From Mailhella sp. (GTDB lineage: Bacteria; Desulfobacterota; Desulfovibrionia; Desulfovibrionales; Desulfovibrionaceae), in assembly GCA_017408905.1 (NCBI GenBank), contig JAFQTU010000016.1, positions 520 to 64,519 of the forward strand: a stretch of DNA of 64,000 nt. The letters run 5' to 3'. The position numbers were made by a program, and so were the translations under genes. Numbering within the stretch: the stretch's first letter is position 1; every line of letters begins with the position of its first letter. A model generated the notes under the pieces. It saw only the letters and a list, made by a program, of their open reading frames with translations. It ran no database searches and had not been told where the DNA came from. Below are positions 4,565 through 47,183 of the stretch, piece after piece.

Positions 4565-5779
4565 TCAGAGCTTGTAGGCCGACTCGCCGTGCAGGGCCTC
4601 GTCAAGGCCGGTGAGCTCCTGTTCCCGGCTCACGCGGATGGGGCCGAAACGGCTGATGAACTTCAGGATGAACCAGCTCACGCCGAAAGACCAGATGGCC
4701 ACCACGAGGATGCCGAGGAGCTGGAGGAAGAACTGCTCCAGCCCGGCTTCCACATGGTTGATGCCCGACGAGGCGAAGACGCCGATGAGCAATGCGCCGG
4801 TCACGCCGCCCATGCCGTGCGCACGCCAGACTTCGAGGGCGTCGTCGAAGCGGAGCTTTTCCTGCACGCAGCGGGAGAAGTAGCAGACCACCGCGCCCGC
4901 CGCACCGATGACAATAGCGGCCCACGGCGGCACGTAGCCCGCCGCCGGGGTGATGGTGGCAAGGCCCGCCACCGCGCCCACGAGCACGCCGGAGAACGAC
5001 GGCCTGCGCTCATGCCGCCAGTCCAGCAGCATCCAGACCAGCATGGCGATAGAGCCGGAAATGGTGGTGTTGGTGAAGGCGTAGGAAGCGAGGTCGTCCG
5101 CGGCATAGGCACCGCCCGCATTGAAGCCGAACCAGCCGAACCACAGAAGGCCCGCCCCCACGGCCACAAGGGGCAGGTTGTTGGGCTCGGCCTTCTCGCC
5201 CGGGGCGATATCGTCGCGCGGGCCCATGAACATCACCGTGGCAAGGGCCGCAAAGCCTGCGCTCACATGGATCACGATGCCGCCTGCGAAGTCCACCACG
5301 CCAAGGCGGGCAAGGAAGCCGCCGCCCCATATCCAGTGGCAGGCCGGGAGATAGACGAGTATCATCCAGAGCACGAGGAACTGCAGGTAGCCCCGGAAGT
5401 TGAAGCGCCCCGCAAACGCGCCGGTGATGAGCGCGGGCGTGATGATGGCGAACATGAGCTGGTAGGCGAAGAAGAGGATGAAGGGAACGGTGCTGGCGTA
5501 GTCCGGGCTGGGGGCCGCACCTACCTTGTCCAGAGCGAAGTGATAGCTGATATCCCCGATGATGCCGTTCACGCTGGGCCCGAAGGCAAGGCTGAAGCCG
5601 CCGAATATCCAGATCACGGCAATGACGCCCATGGAAATGAAGCTCTGCATCATAATGGTCAGCACGTTCTTGCGCCGCACAAGGCCGCCGTAGAAGAAGG
5701 CCAGCCCCGGCGTCATCAGGCAGACCAGAGCCGTGCAGAACAGGATGAAGGCGGTATCGCCGGTATTGGCCACAGGCAT
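4565..5779 (-). CDS. amt: Ammonium transporter (Amt family)
   Basis: LMTPGLAFFYGGLVRRKN, DFAGGIVIH, WFGWFGFNAG and a second conserved His (RAHG). Confidence 0.95.
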   Translation of the reverse strand: MPVANTGDTAFILFCTALVCLMTPGLAFFYGGLVRRKNVLTIMMQSFISMGVIAVIWIFGGFSLAFGPSVNGIIGDISYHFALDKVGAAPSPDYASTVPFILFFAYQLMFAIITPALITGAFAGRFNFRGYLQFLVLWMILVYLPACHWIWGGGFLARLGVVDFAGGIVIHVSAGFAALATVMFMGPRDDIAPGEKAEPNNLPLVAVGAGLLWFGWFGFNAGGAYAADDLASYAFTNTTISGSIAMLVWMLLDWRHERRPSFSGVLVGAVAGLATITPAAGYVPPWAAIVIGAAGAVVCYFSRCVQEKLRFDDALEVWRAHGMGGVTGALLIGVFASSGINHVEAGLEQFFLQLLGILVVAIWSFGVSWFILKFISRFGPIRVSREQELTGLDEALHGESAYKL

Positions 5780-5792
5780 GGGAAACCTCCTG

Positions 5793-6797
5793 TCAGGCTG
5801 AAGGTGAAGGCGTGCGATGGCTTTCCGGCATGAACTGGATGTTCGGAAGCAGGAAGAGCCATGCGGCTATGACAAAGGGGAAGGTGAGCGTGGGGATGCC
5901 CAGCGGGGCCAGCGCCACGTTGAGCGCCCCCTGCGCCACGACCGTGAACACCGTTCCCAGCAGGGCGTAAAGGATGACGCGCCAGTTGGGGCTGTAGAAG
6001 GCGGAACCGAGGCCTATGGCCGTGAGGACGGCGCTGAACTGGTAAAGCCCCTCGGCCACGGCTCTCTCATCCGCGCCAAGGAAAGCCGCCGTGGCAATGG
6101 CCACCGCCGAACCGCACCATGCAAAGATGGAAGCCGGAAGCGAAGCCCCGGCAAGCCCCACAAGGAAGAGCAGGCCCGTGACTTCGTTCCCGATGAGAAA
6201 GACCTGCGACACCCCCTTGAGCACGGCCCGGGCCAGCACTTCGACATCGGGGAGCATGGCCATAGCCTCGGAAGGCTGGGCTGGCAGGGAAGGATGGGGC
6301 AGGCCCGTGATCTTGAAGTGGGCGAAATTGTACGAGGCCAGCAGGATGAACCATGTGGTGAAGACAAAGGGCCCTGTCATGGCCGAGACCTTCCACGTCC
6401 GCAGGAAGCGCGAGACCGCCAGCATGACGACCGTGGAAAAGAAGGAGCCTGCCACCACCAGCACCCAGCACACCGCCGTGCTCCCGAAGAAGGTGGGGAG
6501 CGCACAGCCCACAAGGATGCCGTTGTAGCCGTGCAGACCCTTGCGGATATCTTCCCCCGGCGCGCCGAGGATGCAGGCGGCCAGCGTTCCCACGACAAGG
6601 CCGACCAGCGCCCCCAGCGCCACTTCCGGGATGCCTTCCGCCCATGCGCCCCAGGCGATACCCAGCAGGAAGAAGAGGCCGCACCATGCGGAATCCTGAA
6701 ACATGACCTGCGCCGCCCCGCGCAGAAGCGTATCCACCCAGCGCAGGAAATGGCAGTTCCCGGCCATGCGCGCCCATGCGTTCTTTCGTTCTGTCAT
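5793..6797 (-). CDS. yut: Urea transporter (UT/Yut family)
   Basis: LRGAAQVMFQ and LKGVSQVFL repeats, GLHGYNGILVG, PTLTFPF; sits inside the urease cluster. Confidence 0.9.
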   Translation of the reverse strand: MTERKNAWARMAGNCHFLRWVDTLLRGAAQVMFQDSAWCGLFFLLGIAWGAWAEGIPEVALGALVGLVVGTLAACILGAPGEDIRKGLHGYNGILVGCALPTFFGSTAVCWVLVVAGSFFSTVVMLAVSRFLRTWKVSAMTGPFVFTTWFILLASYNFAHFKITGLPHPSLPAQPSEAMAMLPDVEVLARAVLKGVSQVFLIGNEVTGLLFLVGLAGASLPASIFAWCGSAVAIATAAFLGADERAVAEGLYQFSAVLTAIGLGSAFYSPNWRVILYALLGTVFTVVAQGALNVALAPLGIPTLTFPFVIAAWLFLLPNIQFMPESHRTPSPSA

Positions 6798-6820
6798 AGT
6801 CCGTCCTTTCGGCTGAAGGT

Positions 6821-7819
6821 TCAACGCCAGAGGAATTCTGGGGGAAGCGGCCTGCCCAGCACGGCCTTGCGCACAAGGGAATGGAATTCGCGCATCTTGC
6901 CGCGCACCTTTCCCACGTCATGCCCCAGTACGCGCAGGGCCAGCCCCGCGCCGTTCGGCAGTACGGATGCGCCCCATGCCAGTTCGCCGGAAACCTCGGA
7001 GCCGACGGCGTTCTTGAGCGAGGCCGTGTGGCGTTCCGGCACAAAGGCATAGACCGAGCCCAGGACCTCGAACGCGCCCATGACGCCGACATTGCGGAAA
7101 TCCATGTCGTCCGGCTCGAGCACAAGGCGCTCCTCGAAGAGGATATCGCCCTCTTTCCCGCCCGGGCGCGAGACGTTCAGGCCTGCGGAATAGATGTCGA
7201 AGCCGAAAAGCTCCTCCTCGTGATGCCAGCGCCGCCCGGGAACGAGAAGCTCGCCGTACACGAAGGAAGCCGAGGCAGGAAGCGTGACGAAGCTGTCCTG
7301 AAGGTAGCGGGAACGGCGGTGCAGGATGAGCGGGTCGGGCATATATTCAAGGTACGCCCCTTCGCCAAGGCAGAAGCGCTGTATCTGCGCGGCATAGCTG
7401 TGATCCATGCTGTGCACCTTGGCGGCGCTCTGCGTGGTCACAAGGGCGCAGGACGCAGGCCCGGCGTTCACGTCCAGCGCAAGGCGGTCGCCCTGCACCA
7501 CGCAGCCTGAGGAGGCTATCACGATGACGCAGGCCATGCCGGGCTGGGATTCCTCCCAGTACAGAGCCTTCTGGGCAAGGAGCGGGGCGCGGCGCTCCAT
7601 ATCGGCAAGCACGGTGCGCCCGCGCGCCTCGTCGTGGCGGAAGTCGAGCCGCAGATATCCGGCCTTGCCCACACTGCCGCTGGCCATCTGCGGCGGTTCG
7701 TCCTGAAAGGGGGAAAGTTCCGAAGCCTGCGCCCCCATGCCTGCCACACTGCGGCGTGCGGCTTCGAAGCTGGAACAGTCCGGGCAGAACGCCGCTTCCT
7801 GCGAAAAAAGCCCCGGCAT
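6821..7819 (-). CDS. ureD: Urease accessory protein UreD
   Basis: GCVVQGDRL, LVTTQSAAKVH, LEYMPDPLI; position after ureG. Confidence 0.9.
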   Translation of the reverse strand: MPGLFSQEAAFCPDCSSFEAARRSVAGMGAQASELSPFQDEPPQMASGSVGKAGYLRLDFRHDEARGRTVLADMERRAPLLAQKALYWEESQPGMACVIVIASSGCVVQGDRLALDVNAGPASCALVTTQSAAKVHSMDHSYAAQIQRFCLGEGAYLEYMPDPLILHRRSRYLQDSFVTLPASASFVYGELLVPGRRWHHEEELFGFDIYSAGLNVSRPGGKEGDILFEERLVLEPDDMDFRNVGVMGAFEVLGSVYAFVPERHTASLKNAVGSEVSGELAWGASVLPNGAGLALRVLGHDVGKVRGKMREFHSLVRKAVLGRPLPPEFLWR

Positions 7820-7821
7820 GG

Positions 7822-8463
7822 TCAGGCTCCCCTGCCGGAGCGGCAAGGCACGTCGAAGAGCGCGTCGCGCCGGATCCACGCGGCAAGTGTGTCGATATTG
7901 CGGCCCGTCATGCAGTTGGTGAAGAGGAAGGGCCGGTCGCCTCGCATGAGTCTGGCGTCGCGCTCCATGACCTCGAGGCTTGCCCCCACGTAGGGCGCAA
8001 GGTCTTCCTTGTTGATGACAAGGATGTCCGACTGGCAGATGCCCGGCCCGCTTTTGCGCGGTATCTTGTCACCGGCGGCCACGTCGATGACATAGATGAA
8101 AAAGTCGGCCAGCGCCGGACTGAAGGTAAGGGTCAGGTTGTCGCCGCCGCTCTCGATGAAAATGACATCGCTGTCCGGGAAGCGCTCTTCAAGCTCTTCC
8201 ACGGCGGCAAGGTTCATGCTCGGGTCTTCGCGTATGGCGGTATGGGGGCAGGCCCCGGTCTCCACGCCCACGATGCGTTCCGGCTCCAGCACACCGGCAA
8301 GGGCGCGGCGCACGTGCTGGGCGTCTTCGGTGGTCACCACGTCATTGGTTATGATGAGCGGGCGCACCCCTTCGCGCATGAGCAGGGGCACAACGGCCTC
8401 GATGACCGCCGTTTTGCCGGAGCCCACCGGGCCGCCCACGCCTATCCTCGTGATCTTCTTCAT
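7822..8463 (-). CDS. ureG: Urease accessory GTPase UreG
   Basis: [35 protein letters not shown]. Confidence 0.97.
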
Positions 8464-8474
8464 ACAATATCCTT

Positions 8475-9263
8475 TCAGCTCATAAAGAGCCGCACCCGGC
8501 CCTGCGAGTGTACGGCGGCCAGGATATCCGTCATGGGCGCATAGCCCGTCATACGGCTCAGGGGAGTCTCGAAGGTGCGGCGGCAGAGCTCGGGGAAGAG
8601 TTCGGAACTGCGGTACATGATGCCCTGCACGTCGTAATGGGTAACGCGCATGAGCCTGAGCGCCGCGTTGAGCAGGCCCATAGCCACACCGTAGAAATAG
8701 ACCGTGAGCCCCTCCTGCGCGAGGGCTTCCACCTCGGCGTTCCCTTCCTCCGTTCCCTCGGCATGGCGCAGAGGGCGCTGGGCAAAGGCGGACGCCGCAA
8801 GGAGCACCGCCAGCGACACAGGGTAGCACCCCGGAGAAGAGCCCATGCGGAGCTGTCTCATCCAGCGGTCGGCCAGCGGGGAACAGGTCATGGAAGCGGA
8901 AAGCTCGGCCAGCTTGCGGCCCGTGCGCGTCATCATGTCGCGGAACTCCTCGGGGAGTTTGCGGCGGTAGAGCGCAAGGTCGATGGTGCGCAGGCGGGTA
9001 AGGGCCGCTTCGCTCACCGGGCCTCCCATGCTCACCGGGTCGGCACAGAGGCGGCGAAGGGCGTGGTCCAGCCCCACGGCATCGCCGGTGGCGCATTGCC
9101 GCAGGGCCGTGACCACGTACTGCTGGAGCGTAGCCGCATCGTGCACGGCGCCCTTCTGCACGGCGGCTTCCAGCGCCCCGGAAAACGCGAAGGCGCCCGT
9201 GGGCAGCATGGAATCGCCGAACTGCAGGAGGCGTACCAAGGAAAGGATGCCCGCCGCTTCCAT
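8475..9263 (-). CDS. ureF: Urease accessory protein UreF
   Basis: [21 protein letters not shown] at the N-terminus; H...RLFMS at the C-terminus. Confidence 0.92.
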
Positions 9264-9270
9264 GCCAGCC

Positions 9271-9948
9271 TCACAATTCCTTATGGTGGCCATGCCGCCG
9301 ACCCCTGTGCCGCCGCCCATGCGGGCCGCACGGATGCTCGTGATGACCGCCGCCGTGCCTGTGCTCGCGCCCGAAGCCATGACTGAGCAGGGCCTCGTGC
9401 TCATGGCTATGCCCGCCCTGCTCCGCTCCGCCGAAAAGGCGGCGTGCCTCGTGCTCGTCCAGAAGGTCGAGCACGTCTTCCCCGGCGGCGAAGACATAGC
9501 TCACACCGGGCACGGCATGGGTGTCCATGACGGAAGCCGCCACGTTCTTGTCGGTGGAGACCGGCACGAAGACCGTGCTCCCCTTGACCACGGCGGGCCA
9601 GTGCTGGTTGCCCAGCGCGTGGCCGAGGCGCACGGAGGAAGCGAGCGCATCTTCCGCAGGCAGGGAGGCAAGGCCGGACATATCGAGCAGCATGACGGGG
9701 CAGAGCCTGATGCGGCAGACCACGGCACAGCGCTCTTCTTCGTTCCAGTCGAGGATATCGCCGTTTCGCAGGCTGTGGCCGCGCTCCAGAGCCACCGCCA
9801 TAGGCCGTCCGCCTGCGGTCGCCTTGCGGAAACGATTCTTCTGCGCATCCCACTGACTGAGCTCCAGCCAGTCTATCCGCGCCCCTTCCAGCCGCCTCTT
9901 CCAGTCCGCATCGGCGGCATTGCCAAGAACAGAATCGAAAATCTCCAT
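9271..9948 (-). CDS. ureE: Urease nickel chaperone UreE with His-rich C-terminal tail
   Basis: KNRFRK, LRNGDIL, GHALGNQHWP; His-rich tail. Confidence 0.92.
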   Translation of the reverse strand: MEIFDSVLGNAADADWKRRLEGARIDWLELSQWDAQKNRFRKATAGGRPMAVALERGHSLRNGDILDWNEEERCAVVCRIRLCPVMLLDMSGLASLPAEDALASSVRLGHALGNQHWPAVVKGSTVFVPVSTDKNVAASVMDTHAVPGVSYVFAAGEDVLDLLDEHEARRLFGGAEQGGHSHEHEALLSHGFGREHRHGGGHHEHPCGPHGRRHRGRRHGHHKEL

Positions 9949-9959
9949 CGAAAAACCGC

Positions 9960-11678
9960 CTAGCTGAAGAAGTAGAGCTGACCGAGCGCCACGCTCCTGG
10001 CCGGGGGAACAGTGGCGTGCACACCGTCCACGGTAACGGCAAAGGTCTCGGGATCGACCTCCACCTTGGGCAGGAAGGCGTTACGCACCATGCAGTGCTT
10101 GGAAAGCGTGCGCATACCGCGCACGGCTTCCACACGGCTCCGAAGGCCCAGCTTCTCGCCAACGCCCAGTTCCTTGGCCGCCTGCGACACGAAGATGATG
10201 CGCCCGGTCTGCCGCCTGAGGCCGATGCCGCCGAACATGGGGCGGTAGATGACCGGCTGGGGCGTAGGCAGGGAGGCGTTGGGGTCGCCCATGACGGACC
10301 ATGCTATCATGCCGCCCTTAAGCACCATCTGGGGTTTGGCTCCGAAGAAGCGCGGATCCCAGAGCACGAGGTCGGCCACCTTGCCCTTCTCCACCGAACC
10401 GATGAGATGGGACACGCCCTGAATAATGGCCGGGTTGATGGTCACCTTGGCCACGTAGCGGAGCACGCGGAAATTGTCGTGCCTATCGCAGTCTTCCGGC
10501 AGAGGGCCGCGAGCCGCCTTCATGGCGCTGGCCGTCTGCACGGCGCGGAGCCAGTTCTCGCCCACGCGGCCCATAGCCTGCGAATCGCTGGAGAAGCAGG
10601 AGATAGCGCCCATGTCGTGCAGGACGTTCTCGGCGGCAATGGTCTCGGCCCTCACGCGGCTCTCGGCAAAGGAGACGTCCGAAGGGACATTGTGGTTCAG
10701 GTTATGGCAGACCATGATCATGTCGAAGAGCTCGGCCTGCGAATTGACGCCGAAGGGCAGGGTCGGGTTGGTGGAGCTGGGCAGGACGTTGGGGTAGGAA
10801 ACAGCCTTGATGATATCCGGGGCATGGCCGCCGCCCGCGCCTTCGGTGTGATAGGTGTGGATGACGCGGCCTTCCATAGCGGCGATGGTGTCTTCCACGT
10901 AGCCCGCTTCGTTCAGGGTATCGGTATGAATGGAGACCTGCACGTCCATCTCGTCGGCCACGGCAAGGGCATGGCGTATCATGGAAGGCATGGCGCCCCA
11001 GTCTTCATGGATCTTGAAGCCGCAGGCCCCGGCCTCTATCTGCTCGCGCAGGGGCAGGGGGGCGCTGGCATGGCCCTTGGCCAGAAGGCCCACGTTCACG
11101 GGCATGGCTTCCACGGCTTCGAGCATACGGTGTATGTTCCATTCCCCGGGGGTGATGGTCGTGCCGTTCGTGCCGTCCGTAGGGCCTACGCCGCCGCCGA
11201 AGAACGTGGTCACGCCGTTGGAAATGGCGGCCTCGCCCTGCTGGGGGGAAATGAAGTGGACGTGCGAATCGATGCCGCCGGCCGTAAGGATGAGGTGCTC
11301 GCCGGAAATGGCGTCCGTGGCGTTGCCCACTACGAGTTCCGGGCTCACGCCGTCCATGACGGCAGGATTGCCCGCCTTGCCTATGCCCGCTATCATGCCG
11401 TCGCGTATGCCCACGTCGGCCTTGATGACGCCCTGCACGGCGTCCACGATGGTCACGTTGGTGATGACGATATCCAGCACGCCGCTGTCGCGCCCGGTGC
11501 GGGAATCGCCGCCCATACCGGCGCGAAGGGTCTTGCCGCCGCCGTAGATGGACTCGTCGCCGTAGCCGCGCAGGTCCTTTTCGATTTCCACGTAAAGGTC
11601 GGTGTCGCCAAGGCGGATGCGGTCCCCCACGGTGGGGCCGAACAGCGAAGAGTATTCTTTTCTTGAGATCTGCGCCAT
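9960..11678 (-). CDS. ureC: Urease subunit alpha
   Basis: Nickel ligands are intact: [40 protein letters not shown]; flap MVCHNL. Confidence 0.99.
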
Positions 11679-11687
11679 GCGCCCTCC

Positions 11688-12080
11688 CTAGTGACGGACG
11701 TTCTTGAAGCCGAGAGCGTCGGCTCTGGCAATGTTGATGGAGCGGGCATGCCTGTCACCCGTCCACGAATCCACGAGGTCGTTGAAGCCGTACGCGGCGC
11801 GAAGGCCGCCGAACGGCACGAGCTCCACGCTCTTCTCGTCGCCGGGTTCGAAGCGCACCGCCGTGGTGGAGGCGATGTTCAGGCGCATACCGTAGGCCGC
11901 GGCCCGATCGAACTCCAGAGCACGGTTCACCTCGAAGAAATGGAAATGGGAACCTACCTGAATGGGCCTGTCGCCGGTATTGCGCACCTTGATGGTCGTC
12001 ACAGGCCTGCCTTCGTTGAACGAAACCGGGGCTTCGGCATAGATGACGCCGCCCACGGGTATCTTGTCTTTCGTGTCCAA
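11688..12080 (-). CDS. ureB: Urease subunit beta
   Basis: [28 protein letters not shown]...AVRFEPG; TTG start. Confidence 0.97.
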
Positions 12081-12142
12081 GCGCGTTTCCTTTTCGCCGC
12101 AGGGTACGGCCTGCGGGCTGATTATGAGGAAGGGGAAAAACG

Positions 12143-12445
12143 TCAGCGTATGGGGTCGTGCACGGTGACAAGGCGGCTGCCGTCCGTGAACACGGCTTCG
12201 AGCTGGACGAAGGGTATCATCTCGGGCACGCCTTCCATGACATCGGCACGGGTGAGCACGCTTCCGGCCAGATGCATGACCTCTTCCACGCTCTTCCCGG
12301 CCCTGGCTTCTTCCAGAGCTTCCGAAGTGATGTAGGCCACGGCCTCGGGGTGATTGAGCCTGAGCCCGCGCCCTTTGCGGCGGCGGGCCACTTCGCCCAG
12401 CGCCAGCACGAGCAGCTTGTCCTTTTCTCGCGGGGTAAGATGCAT
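12143..12445 (-). CDS. ureA: Urease subunit gamma
   Basis: [11 protein letters not shown]...LNHPEA...[15 protein letters not shown]; AAGGAGG SD. Confidence 0.98.
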
Positions 12446-12655
12446 GATGCCTCCTTTTCTCTGGCGGCCCTGCCGAACCGCCCTGATATGAAGGAAGCCT
12501 AGCCCCGCTCGCATGAGAGGGAAATTGTAATGATGACGGGCACTTTGATAATCATAGCAAAAGCCCCTCCGCCGCTTTTCCCGGCAGAGAGGCTTCGCAG
12601 TTGACGCTTCTGCCCTGCGGACGTAAAACAGGGGCAAACGCAAAGGCAGGTAGAT

Positions 12656-44558: not shown

Positions 44559-44562
44559 CACT

Positions 44563-44600
44563 GAAGACCGCCTGCCGGATATCCAGCGGGCGGTCTTTCT
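44563..44600 (+). terminator. Intrinsic terminator after addB
   Basis: GAAGACCGCCTGCCGG-ATAT-CCAGCGGGCGGTCTTTCT. Confidence 0.75.
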
Positions 44601-45322
44601 GTATGCGCGTGCAGTGCAGGAGTGAGGAGTTCGCAGCATTCGCAGTTCGGCATGGCGGAATCTGCCGTCGTCTCCGCCGTACCTTGGCCAGAACACGCCC
44701 TTCGCGTCATGAAGAAGGGCATGGCAGGACAGAAATGGGGGCCGGACGTCATGGCGCATCCGGCTGAGGAGTTCTCCGAAAGTTCGGAGCGGGGGAAATT
44801 TTGCCAGCATGCATGGCGGGCATACTGGCAATGCGGAGGAGTTCTTCCGAAAGGGGACCTGAATCCTTCGGAAGCCTATGGCGAAAATATCATGGATCTG
44901 CAGTCCATCTCCTTCCGCATGGGCAGAGAAATTTTGCCGGACATCCAGACAAATGCCCGGCGGAAGCGCTTCCTCGGAACAAAGCGCTTGGTGGAATCAG
45001 CGGAACGCTCGGATCATCCCGCTGCTGTTATGGCGAACAAGCGAAGACTTGGTGCTTTCGGGCCGCCCTCCACTATGGAGGGCGGCCCTCGCCGCACCAG
45101 GAGACTGAGGCATGGCCTCAGCACGGAACACGGAACGCCCGTGTTCCAATACCTGCGAGAGCTGGGCTCTCGCGAAATTTTGCCGCCTGACGTCCTCCGA
45201 AGGTCGGAGTCAAGCCGTCGTCAGACGGCGGAGGGGGGAGGTCATATGTTGCCCTGGGCCTTTGCGAACACTCTGCGATTGTCAAATGAGCGGCTTCTGC
45301 GTTGGAGCTTCCCGCTCTCGTT
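44601..45322 (-). ncRNA. Candidate large structured non-coding RNA of unknown family
   Basis: About 14 hairpins, repeated motifs, G-U wobble asymmetry favouring the minus strand, and an upstream promoter-like sequence (see findings). Boundaries are approximate. Confidence 0.55.
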
Positions 45323-45328
45323 GATTTA

Positions 45329-45380
45329 GTAGTAATGAATTCTATTTTCAAAGTCAACACTTTTTTTCCTTCTCTCTAAA
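45329..45380 (-). promoter_or_regulatory. Putative sigma70 promoter firing into the hairpin-rich region
   Basis: Minus strand A-tracts, then GTG-TTGACT (45357-45352)-N17-TACTAC. The -35 and UP-like tract are good; the -10 is only a partial match. Confidence 0.45.
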
Positions 45381-45539
45381 AAATTTTTTTCGAGGGGCAT
45401 TTATCGCTTTTCATCGAAAAGACAATCACATATAACTGTTCAGGCACGGGTAGCGATGGGCTGGGCTTCGAAGCCTTGCCGGAACGCCCCGGGCCATGCA
45501 TCAGAACTTGAGTATTCCAACACATAGAAGGGTTCACGC

Positions 45540-47183
45540 ATGAAAACCAAATTTATCTTCGTCACCGGCGGTGTCCTTTCCTCTCTTGGCAAAGGCCTTG
45601 CGGTAGCCTCCCTCGGCGCTCTCCTGAAGGCTCGCGGCCTTTCCGTGACCGTGCAGAAGCTCGACCCCTACCTCAATATCGACCCTGGTACGCTGAACCC
45701 CCTCGAGCACGGTGAAGTGTTCGTTACCGACGACGGCGCCGAAGCCGACCTCGATCTCGGCCATTACGAGCGCTACCTCGACGTTTCCCTCTCCCAGCTC
45801 AACACCATCACCTCGGGCCGCATCTACTGGCGCGTTCTCAACAAGGAACGCCGCGGCGAGTACAAGGGCGGCACTATCCAGGTGATCCCCAACATCACCG
45901 ACGAGATCAAGCACACCCTGCTGCGGATAGGCGAATCGGAAAACGCCCCCGACGTTGCCCTTGTGGAAATCGGCGGCACTGTGGGCGATATCGAAGGCCT
46001 GCCCTTCCTCGAAGCCATCCGCCAGCTCCGTTCCGAGCTTGGCCGCCAGAACTGCCTGAACATCCACCTTTCCTACGTTCCCTACATCCAGGCCGCCGGC
46101 GAATACAAGACCAAGCCCACCCAGCACAGCACCAAGGCCCTCCTGGCCATCGGCATCCAGCCCGACATCATCCTCTGCCGCTGTGAAAAGCCGCTTCCTG
46201 CCGACCTCAAGAAGAAGATCGCCCTGTTCTGCAACGTGGATCAGGACGCTGTGTTCACTTCCGTGGACGTGAAGAACGTGTACGAAGTGCCGCTCAAGTT
46301 CTACGACGAAGGCCTCGACCTCAAGGTGTCCATGCTCCTCACCCTGCCTGCCCGCCGCGCCCACCTCGACGGCTGGCGCAAGCTCATGGACGACTTCGAG
46401 GAAAGCGCCAAGCGCAAGATCGTCATCGGCATCGTGGGCAAGTATGTCGAGCTCAAGGAAGCCTACAAGAGCCTGCACGAAGCCCTTGTCCATGCCGGTG
46501 TGGCCAATCTCACCAGCCTTGACCTGCGCTATATCAACTCCGAGGACATCACCGCCAAAACGGCCGACGCCCTCCTCAAGGACTGCGACGGCATCCTCGT
46601 TCCCGACGGCTTCGGCTACCGCGGCGTGGAAGGCAAGATCGAAGCCATCCGCTACGCCCGCGAAAAGAAGATCCCCTTCTTCGGCGAAAGCCTCGGCCTG
46701 CAGTGCGCCGTCATCGAATTCGCCCGCAACGTGGCCGGCCTCGACCACGCCAACTCCGCTGAATTCGCCCCCGAGAACGACCAGAACGTCATCTACACCA
46801 TGGAAGGCGTGGACTACCGCCAGAAGGCCAAGGAATTCCAGAACGAAACCAGCGACAAGAGCGCCGATTTCCGCCTTGGCGCCTATCCCTGCGTCATCGC
46901 TCCCGATACCCTCGCCGCCGCCGCGTACCAGCTCGAAGAGACCTCCGAGCGCCATCGCCACAGCTACGAGTTCAACAACGCCTTCCGCGACATTCTTGTG
47001 GAAAAGGGCCTTATCATCTCCGGCACGTCCCCTGACGGCAAGCTCGTGGAAATCGTGGAACTGGCCGACCATCCCTGGTTCCTGGCCTGCCACTTCCACC
47101 CCGAATTCAAGTCCCGCCCCATGAAGGCCCACCCCCTGCTCAAGGACTTCGTGGCCGCCGCCCTGAAGAAGTCCGGCAAGTAA
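45540..47183 (+). CDS. pyrG: CTP synthase with degenerate glutaminase domain
   Basis: [36 protein letters not shown] and HPEF are present. The catalytic GICLG motif reads GESLG. Confidence 0.95.

Follow-up and report, generated by a model that had tools for sequence, protein, structure and literature searches.

How does a bacterium make CTP when its only CTP synthase has lost the cysteine with which this family hydrolyses glutamine? This question is raised by the pyrG gene that lies in a 64,000-nucleotide stretch of Mailhella sp. DNA (the window). The genome to which the window belongs, termed G000, comprises 1.96 Mb on 80 contigs and is 97.8% complete. The original prediction, made from the letters of the window alone, had read the gene as a likely ammonia-only CTP synthase with a dismantled glutaminase. 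All comparative evidence assembled here supported this reading, and from it we infer the enzyme activity. As a full explanation, we consider it likely that this orthologous and only pyrG of a sulfate-reducing gut Mailhella with a reduced genome encodes an active, NH3-dependent CTP synthase; that its glutaminase is dead appears highly probable.

Altered residues of the glutaminase half

The pyrG product matched NCBIfam PRK05380 (NF003792) with 779 bits (cut-off 308) and TIGR00337 with 745 bits (cut-off 463), whereby the Pfam search placed CTP_synth_N (PF06418, 404 bits) on residues 4–268 and GATase (PF00117, 106 bits), the glutamine amidotransferase (GATase) domain, on residues 305–538. The match to the E. 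coli CTP synthase (CTPS) chain reached an E-value of 7.6e-181. Based on the HMMER alignment to E. coli CTPS (1S1M, 5TKV), from which all residue equivalences were taken, the numbering of PyrG equals that of E. coli in the synthase domain and E. coli plus 5 in the glutaminase domain. The key equivalences are Ser384 = C379, Asp356 = G351, Gln434 = R429, Ser475 = R470, Ser441/Ala442/Asp443 = G436/G437/T438, as well as His520 and Glu522 = H515 and E517. The amidoligase score, the ATP/UTP-site motifs and the class I amidotransferase fold were all found, and by homology PyrG belongs to the CTP synthase family. The features that define the glutamine-hydrolysing CTP synthase (EC 6.3.4.2) are missing, namely the triad cysteine, the first oxyanion glycine and the GTP-activation motif. 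Every motif change listed in the original prediction, which had described a CTP synthase with altered glutaminase motifs, was recovered in its place (Table 1).

The five codons of the nucleophile elbow (46683–46697) read GGC GAA AGC CTC GGC, with GAA AGC at 46686–46691 and Ser384 itself at 46689–46691. Within the L13 loop, SADFRLG (46860–46880) replaces GG(T/S)(M/L)RLG, altering the residues equivalent to G436, G437 and T438 and retaining R440. Among the 40 relatives examined, the 26 further PyrG sequences read at genus and order level were all canonical at these sites (GICLG, PGGFG, GGT(M/L)RLG, RHRHRYE, QFHPEF), and the variant was common to three other species genomes, G006 and G001 (97% identical) as well as G023 (90% identical). 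The protein database added two further lineages, P0003 (GFNLG, QFSPQF) and P0004 (GLSLG, QFAPQF). Across the resulting six Cys-less sequences, PDGFG with its oxyanion aspartate (6/6) and RHRHSYE were invariant. The nucleophile elbow reads GLSLG or GFNLG in sister species, and in G023a, P0003 and P0004 the triad strand has exchanged His for Ala or Ser and Glu for Gln. The altered motif positions are 98–100% invariant across 136 canonical homologues, which puts these changes far outside what chance would give.

We compared the six sequences column by column with 134 canonical homologues and two sister sequences. Thirteen columns, each at least 98% conserved in the canonical set, were changed in all six and only there (G000 numbering: F55L, Q56E, G356D, I383x, C384S/N, L420T/M, W423G, R434Q, G441S, G442A/D, T443D/E/Q, R475S, F534L/I). 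The GATase domain holds 11 of these columns (odds ratio 8.0, p = 0.003), and four of the 13, equivalent to E. coli C379, R429, T438 and R470, belong to 17 catalytic or GTP-activation residues (p = 0.0035), a list drawn from the Bearne review at the same conservation threshold and compiled after the data had been seen, so that the p-values are indicative only. A second group of changes, including I45L, M52L, D107E, L109 to K or G, T178S and L179Y, is found in the canonical sister as well and hence predates the loss of the cysteine. In the L2 loop, F55L and Q56E are thus confined to the Cys-less sequences and I45L and M52L are common to the canonical sister lineage; the L4 change is older than the loss of the cysteine, because the canonical sister reads EYG at the equivalent position.

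The substitutions seen in nature coincide with or adjoin residues for which mutants of E. coli or L. lactis CTPS have been described (G352P, R429A, D107A/L109A, T431V); affected are the positions of C379, R429, T438 and R470, as well as G351 beside G352. E. coli G352P shows no glutamine-dependent activity and nearly full activity with NH4Cl, whereas R429A lowers the glutamine-dependent kcat 15-fold and raises KA for GTP 12-fold with an unchanged NH3 reaction; in D107A and L109A, glutamine-dependent activity is markedly impaired and hydrolysis uncoupled from CTP synthesis, with the NH3 reaction kept (PMC9138612). In L. lactis, T431 and R433, corresponding to E. coli T438 and R440 of the CTPS-specific GG(T/S)(M/L)RLG motif, are required for GTP activation, and T431V impairs the GTP activation of glutamine hydrolysis, while in the E. 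coli complex R468, R470 and E68 contact the purine of the modelled GTP (PMC9138612). These laboratory mutants carry single changes, whereas Mailhella PyrG combines many that are fixed and under selection. From its sequence, the enzyme is expected neither to use glutamine nor to respond to GTP.

Turning to the synthase half, the ATP/UTP-site motifs, comprising the SSLGKG P-loop (K18), D72, GGTVGDIE and KTKPTQHS, were present and invariant across Cys-less and canonical sequences, in line with the earlier statement that the synthetase motifs are retained. The residues P54, H57 and V60, which gate the NH3 tunnel of CTPS (PMC9138612), are likewise conserved in Mailhella PyrG. Since the gate and the synthase site are intact, and the glutaminase chemistry and much of the GTP apparatus are gone, an NH3-dependent, GTP-independent CTP synthase would be the simplest mechanism.

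Table 1 Features of the pyrG locus and of the ammonia-related gene cluster in the window.
Feature	Position	Strand	Basis and remarks
pyrG coding sequence, 547 aa, sole CTP synthase of the genome	45540..47183	+	PRK05380 and TIGR00337 matches
Amidoligase (synthase) domain, residues 4-268	45549..46343	+	Pfam match, intact motifs, dN/dS
L2 loop lining the NH3 tunnel, residues 45-57	45672..45710	+	Alignment; review PMC9138612
L4 loop, RGEYKG (E. coli D107 to E, L109 to K)	45852..45869	+	Alignment
Class I glutamine amidotransferase domain, residues 305-538	46452..47153	+	Pfam; fold kept, catalytic and glutamine/GTP-site residues replaced
Oxyanion strand, PDGFG for PGGFG (E. coli G351 to D)	46602..46616	+	Alignment
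Nucleophile elbow, G-E-S-L-G for G-I-C-L-G (C379 to Ser384)	46683..46697	+	Codons
L13 loop, GTP-activation motif	46839..46880	+	Alignment; R434Q (= E. coli R429)
RHRHSYE (E. coli R470 to Ser; R468 kept)	46950..46970	+	Alignment
Triad strand, HFHPEF (Q518 to H; His520 and Glu522 kept)	47091..47108	+	Alignment
ureABC-EFGD, urea transporter, Amt ammonium transporter	4565..12643	-	Context

Phylogeny, copy number and selection

In a maximum-likelihood tree the six Cys-less sequences, representing at least five species-level lineages, formed a single clade with 100/100 support, in the following referred to as the dead clade. Its sister is a canonical clade consisting of P0005 and the second G023 copy. 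Across the six members the nucleophile position reads S, S, S, S, N, S and its neighbour E, E, E, L, F, L, and three of them lack both the triad His and the triad Glu. Such drift at catalytic positions, in a protein that is otherwise well conserved, points to an abandoned glutaminase site and not to a re-tooled serine-based one. The G023 metagenome-assembled genome (MAG) carries its dead pyrG on C271, 90% identical to that of the window, and on C148, beside a canonical purF, a canonical pyrG that is 99% like P0005. With these two copies, the bin probably mixes two Mailhella species, and we set it aside as unreliable for the order of losses.

A single pyrG each was detected in G000, G001 and G006, the last of which is 77% complete, and no second copy was found in these three genomes. 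The earlier alternative of a paralogue with a new role is therefore not supported; the synteny of pyrG with secA is moreover that of the relatives. An argument built on the absence of kdsA as a neighbour also fell, since the neighbours of pyrG in the three canonical Mailhella relatives that we inspected are a small GNAT gene and secA rather than kdsA. This small GNAT acetyltransferase gene, which lies between pyrG and secA in canonical Mailhella, has no counterpart in the genomes of the dead clade, in which pyrG and secA converge directly on each other. On the other side, a gap of about 980 nt (44559–45539), which is unusually long, separates pyrG from an addB-like nuclease gene; it contains no convincing open reading frame and is partly conserved in G001. 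An Rfam scan of this gap returned no credible family, and one metatranscriptome contig spans 45300–45556, from the 3' part of the gap into the start of pyrG.

We next consider the selective constraint on the two halves, determined as pairwise Nei–Gojobori ratios of non-synonymous to synonymous substitution rates (dN/dS). Within the dead clade, dN/dS was 0.016–0.093 for the synthase and 0.09–0.22 for the GATase domain, compared to 0.015–0.074 and 0.03–0.21, respectively, for canonical Mailhella pairs. By this measure, the constraint on the synthase half matches that in normal enzymes, and the dead GATase is somewhat relaxed and clearly still under purifying selection. Neutral erosion of a decaying gene under relaxed selection would be in keeping with a dN that among clade members is 2–6 times higher for the GATase than for the synthase domain, as well as with the many genes that this lineage has lost. 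Nevertheless, we regard such decay as very unlikely indeed: the GATase ratios are far below 1, neither stop codons nor frameshifts interrupt the gene in the six lineages or in any of the 11 full-length sequences read from the cluster, the changes gather on glutaminase and GTP-site residues instead of being evenly spread, and metatranscriptome contigs, although such libraries can contain DNA, cover pyrG. The earlier statement that the gene does not look like neutral decay is thereby upheld. The GC content at third codon positions (GC3), 0.85 in the glutaminase and 0.81 in the synthase domain, also speaks against decay. The strong codon bias claimed earlier was followed in the form of GC3 only, with values similar to those of secA and ureC.

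The dead-site codons were also inspected at the population level. Gut or faecal metagenome contigs from at least four different studies showed no difference at these codons, the only variant nearby being a silent C>T at 46685, and the cysteine is absent from all 11 full-length members read of the 99-member protein cluster around P0002. An assembly or sequencing artefact, which the original prediction had named as a possible refutation, would have to produce the same codons in the contigs of four studies, in four species genomes (three besides that of the window) and in the protein cluster, and is refuted. Metatranscriptome contigs (at least 97% identity) tile much of pyrG, and the one covering 46668–46747 showed no differences. 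This suggests that pyrG is transcribed, with the reservation that metatranscriptome libraries can contain DNA and the proof is not conclusive.

Other amidotransferases and the supply of ammonia

The PF00117 search revealed only four class I domains in G000 and no stand-alone CTPS-type glutaminase. One of the four belongs to CarA (C2:16320-17438), which reads GVGLGHQ for the canonical AICLGHQ (Cys to Gly) and QFEACP for QHHPEA (HHPE to FEAC), with loss of the triad histidine and a deletion of eight residues. Its gene forms a carB-carA operon (C2:13114-17438) in the same order as in canonical relatives, to which CarB is 85% identical and CarA 59%. G001 has the same Cys-less CarA, and no carA was found in G006 at its level of completeness. 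An ancient dead carA paralogue, kept after loss of the canonical copy, was considered and is not supported, based on the orthologous operon position and the identities of CarB versus CarA; furthermore, the dead second copies in G005 and G010 form no supported clade with the CarA of G000. These two genomes each contain two carA forms, one canonical and one with the Cys-to-Gly exchange and the same eight-residue deletion. In G005 both forms share identical 5' parts at contig edges, and the double carA of G005 and G010 could reflect a duplication or strain polymorphism collapsed by the assembler.

TrpG, fused to TrpD (C29:23020-24636) within an intact trpE-GD-CF-B-A operon, reads GVGLGHQ and VQYAPES (Cys to Gly, His to Ala), and in G001 and G006 the latter motif reads VQYDPGS (His to Asp, Glu to Gly). 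A full-length guaA is absent from G000, G001 and G006. Instead, a GATase-less GuaA of 326 aa, comprising the ATP-pyrophosphatase and dimerisation domains, directly follows guaB (TIGR00884 guaA_Cterm, 441 bits), whereas most canonical Mailhella have the full-length and the short GuaA in tandem. In G000 this gene spans C34:17248-17904 and C22:2-460, two contigs that overlap by about 127 nt inside the gene at an assembly break. Canonical purF is absent from G000 and G006, whose only PurF homologue (C36:5170-6588, reverse strand, in G000) begins MGGFFG without Cys1, scores 163 bits against TIGR01134, below the cut-off of 350, and is encoded beside a PurO-like IMP cyclohydrolase and purL. This MGGFFG family was present in all Mailhella examined, with the canonical relatives having a canonical purF as well.

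An inventory of glutamate synthase (GOGAT) and glutamate dehydrogenase (GDH) was taken from HMM searches, as motif scans are unreliable for both. GOGAT and the second glnA next to it are missing in G000, G001 and G006 and present in G008, G020 and G021; one type III glnA remains. Nucleophile or catalytic residues are intact in HisH, PurL (GICNG...GHSER), GlmS (MCGIIGY), GatA (GGSSGG), CobB/CbiA (AECGG) and PdxT (GTCAG, FHPE). The enzymes in which the glutaminase has gone, namely CTPS, carbamoyl phosphate synthetase (CPS), GMP synthetase, anthranilate synthase and PurF, have synthase halves that work well with free NH3 in vitro; the amidotransferases that kept their glutaminase use NH3 poorly or not at all. 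NadE was discarded as a lineage-specific loss, since its N-terminal nitrilase domain is degenerate across the whole genus, lacking the usual catalytic Glu and Cys motifs in nine Mailhella genomes; the NAD synthetase is probably NH3-dependent in all Mailhella species.

The sequencing runs that contained the pyrG variant derive from gut or faecal samples, including sheep and cattle. Together with the complete urease operon, urea transporter and ammonium transporter genes of the window (Table 1), a plausible source of NH3, this habitat fits an ammonia-rich niche, in which urease would be a permissive background.

Weighing and significance of a probable ammonia-dependent CTP synthase

Several observations weigh against an NH3-dependent enzyme that has lost its control by GTP, or limit the data behind it. 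All genomes compared are MAGs, among them the probably mixed G023 bin with its two kinds of pyrG. The AlphaFold model, built on a shallow alignment of 22 sequences (mean pLDDT 58.8), is poor for the synthase domain (<50 pLDDT), with values of about 85–97 for the GATase region outside the L13 loop. D107E, L109K and M52L were withdrawn as consequences of glutaminase death, as the sister P0005 already has them. Urease was rejected as a lineage-specific cause, its alpha subunit being encoded in 18 of 25 Mailhella genomes, canonical ones included. GDH was not found in G000 by the HMM search, which calls the glutamate supply of this genome into question, and is present in G001 and G006. Within the GTP cleft, T51, E68, G352, R356, G360, R440 and R468 are retained, so that GTP might still bind. 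H118N is present in G000, G001 and G006, where it might lower activity; E. coli H118A, in the work of Iyengar and Bearne from 2003, was reportedly only partly active with NH3. Finally, a formal Ser-His-Glu triad remains in the same three genomes.

With Ser384, His520 and Glu522 all in place in this subclade, and Ser-His-Glu triads being catalytically competent in other hydrolase families, PyrG might hydrolyse glutamine slowly and act as a weak glutamine-dependent CTP synthase. Class I amidotransferases mutated from Cys to Ser are, however, not known to retain glutaminase activity. Sister species show an Asn nucleophile and the loss of His and Glu with the overall constraint unaffected, and the change of Gly351 to Asp as well as the replacement of R470, R429 and the GGTxRLG lid would further disfavour residual hydrolysis. 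The same conclusion is suggested by vertebrate CPS1, which with Ser294 is unable to use glutamine (PMC4655335). Taken together, we judge a weak glutaminase to be very improbable.

The differences at several conserved tunnel and loop residues, H118N included, bear on another possibility, namely a conserved pseudoenzyme serving as a nucleotide-binding or filament scaffold, or an amidoligase for a different substrate, with CTP obtained by cytidine salvage, for which a reduced genome in a nutrient-rich gut would be a suitable setting. This appears improbable, since the ATP/UTP-site motifs and catalytic residues are invariant, the synthase dN/dS is as low as in canonical relatives, the scores are well above the equivalog cut-offs and the genome has no other pyrG. 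Moreover, the changes in carA, trpG, guaA and purF follow the same ammonia logic.

For the favoured NH3-dependent CTP synthase, we propose that the amidoligase domain would phosphorylate UTP with ATP and then aminate it with free NH3, which may enter via the solvent vestibule and tunnel of the retained, dead amidotransferase domain. Glutamine would not be hydrolysed and GTP activation would no longer be needed, the GATase domain being kept for the tetramer architecture and as the entry path of NH3. PyrG probably forms one part of a coherent, lineage-wide move away from glutamine amide nitrogen, in which CTP and further building blocks would be made from free ammonia. An NH3-dependent activity and a loss of GTP control are inferred, as is an ammonia-rich, urea-fed gut as the ecological cause.

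A more speculative extension, which we put forward as tentative and rather doubtful, is that the dead glutaminase pocket has been rebuilt as an ammonium-capture vestibule, yielding a GTP-insensitive enzyme with improved ammonium affinity. All clade members gain acidic or polar residues in the former glutamine/GTP cleft and tunnel (Q56E, G351D, T438 to D/E/Q) and lose two arginines there (R429Q, R470S), changes that would repel GTP and attract NH4+. If this were true, then, together with the dead CarA and TrpG, the GATase-less GuaA, the Cys-less PurF and the missing GOGAT, pyrimidine, purine, arginine and tryptophan synthesis would run on free ammonia and show by natural example that these pathways can do without glutamine amide transfer.

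Compared to canonical PyrG (E. coli 1S1M, 2AD5), the Mailhella enzyme shares the two-domain architecture, length, amidoligase motifs, gate residues and orthologous locus. It differs by the exchanges C379 to Ser, G351 to Asp, R429 to Gln and R470 to Ser and by the lid SADFRLG, with sister species also lacking His515 and Glu517. A mechanistic analogue from a different family is vertebrate CPS1, which has Ser294 in place of the cysteine, keeps its GATase in an inactive form and takes up ammonia from outside (PMC4655335). The CPS1-type combination of a retained but dead GATase on a still essential enzyme was found in the sole pyrG. Unlike the Mailhella enzyme, CPS1 is eukaryotic, mitochondrial and activated by N-acetylglutamate; its direct bacterial counterpart is the Mailhella CarA with its Cys-to-Gly exchange. 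A limited search of the searchable literature returned no description of a natural Cys-less CTP synthase. The PyrG of the window is most likely an ammonia-only enzyme, and a new natural variant of a well-known one. The pipeline label 'glutamine-hydrolysing CTP synthase' is then probably wrong, and metabolic models of gut Desulfovibrionaceae would mis-assign the flow of nitrogen.

CTP synthase is a textbook glutamine amidotransferase, of which the GTP control and the gated NH3 tunnel are still being worked out. As a separation-of-function variant, the Mailhella enzyme would show which GATase parts serve structure and the entry of NH3 alone, by which route NH3 from outside reaches the enzyme and what purpose GTP regulation has. 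Within the genome, the parallel losses set against the untouched enzymes would show which amidotransferases can switch to free ammonia in a gut rich in it, and in what order.

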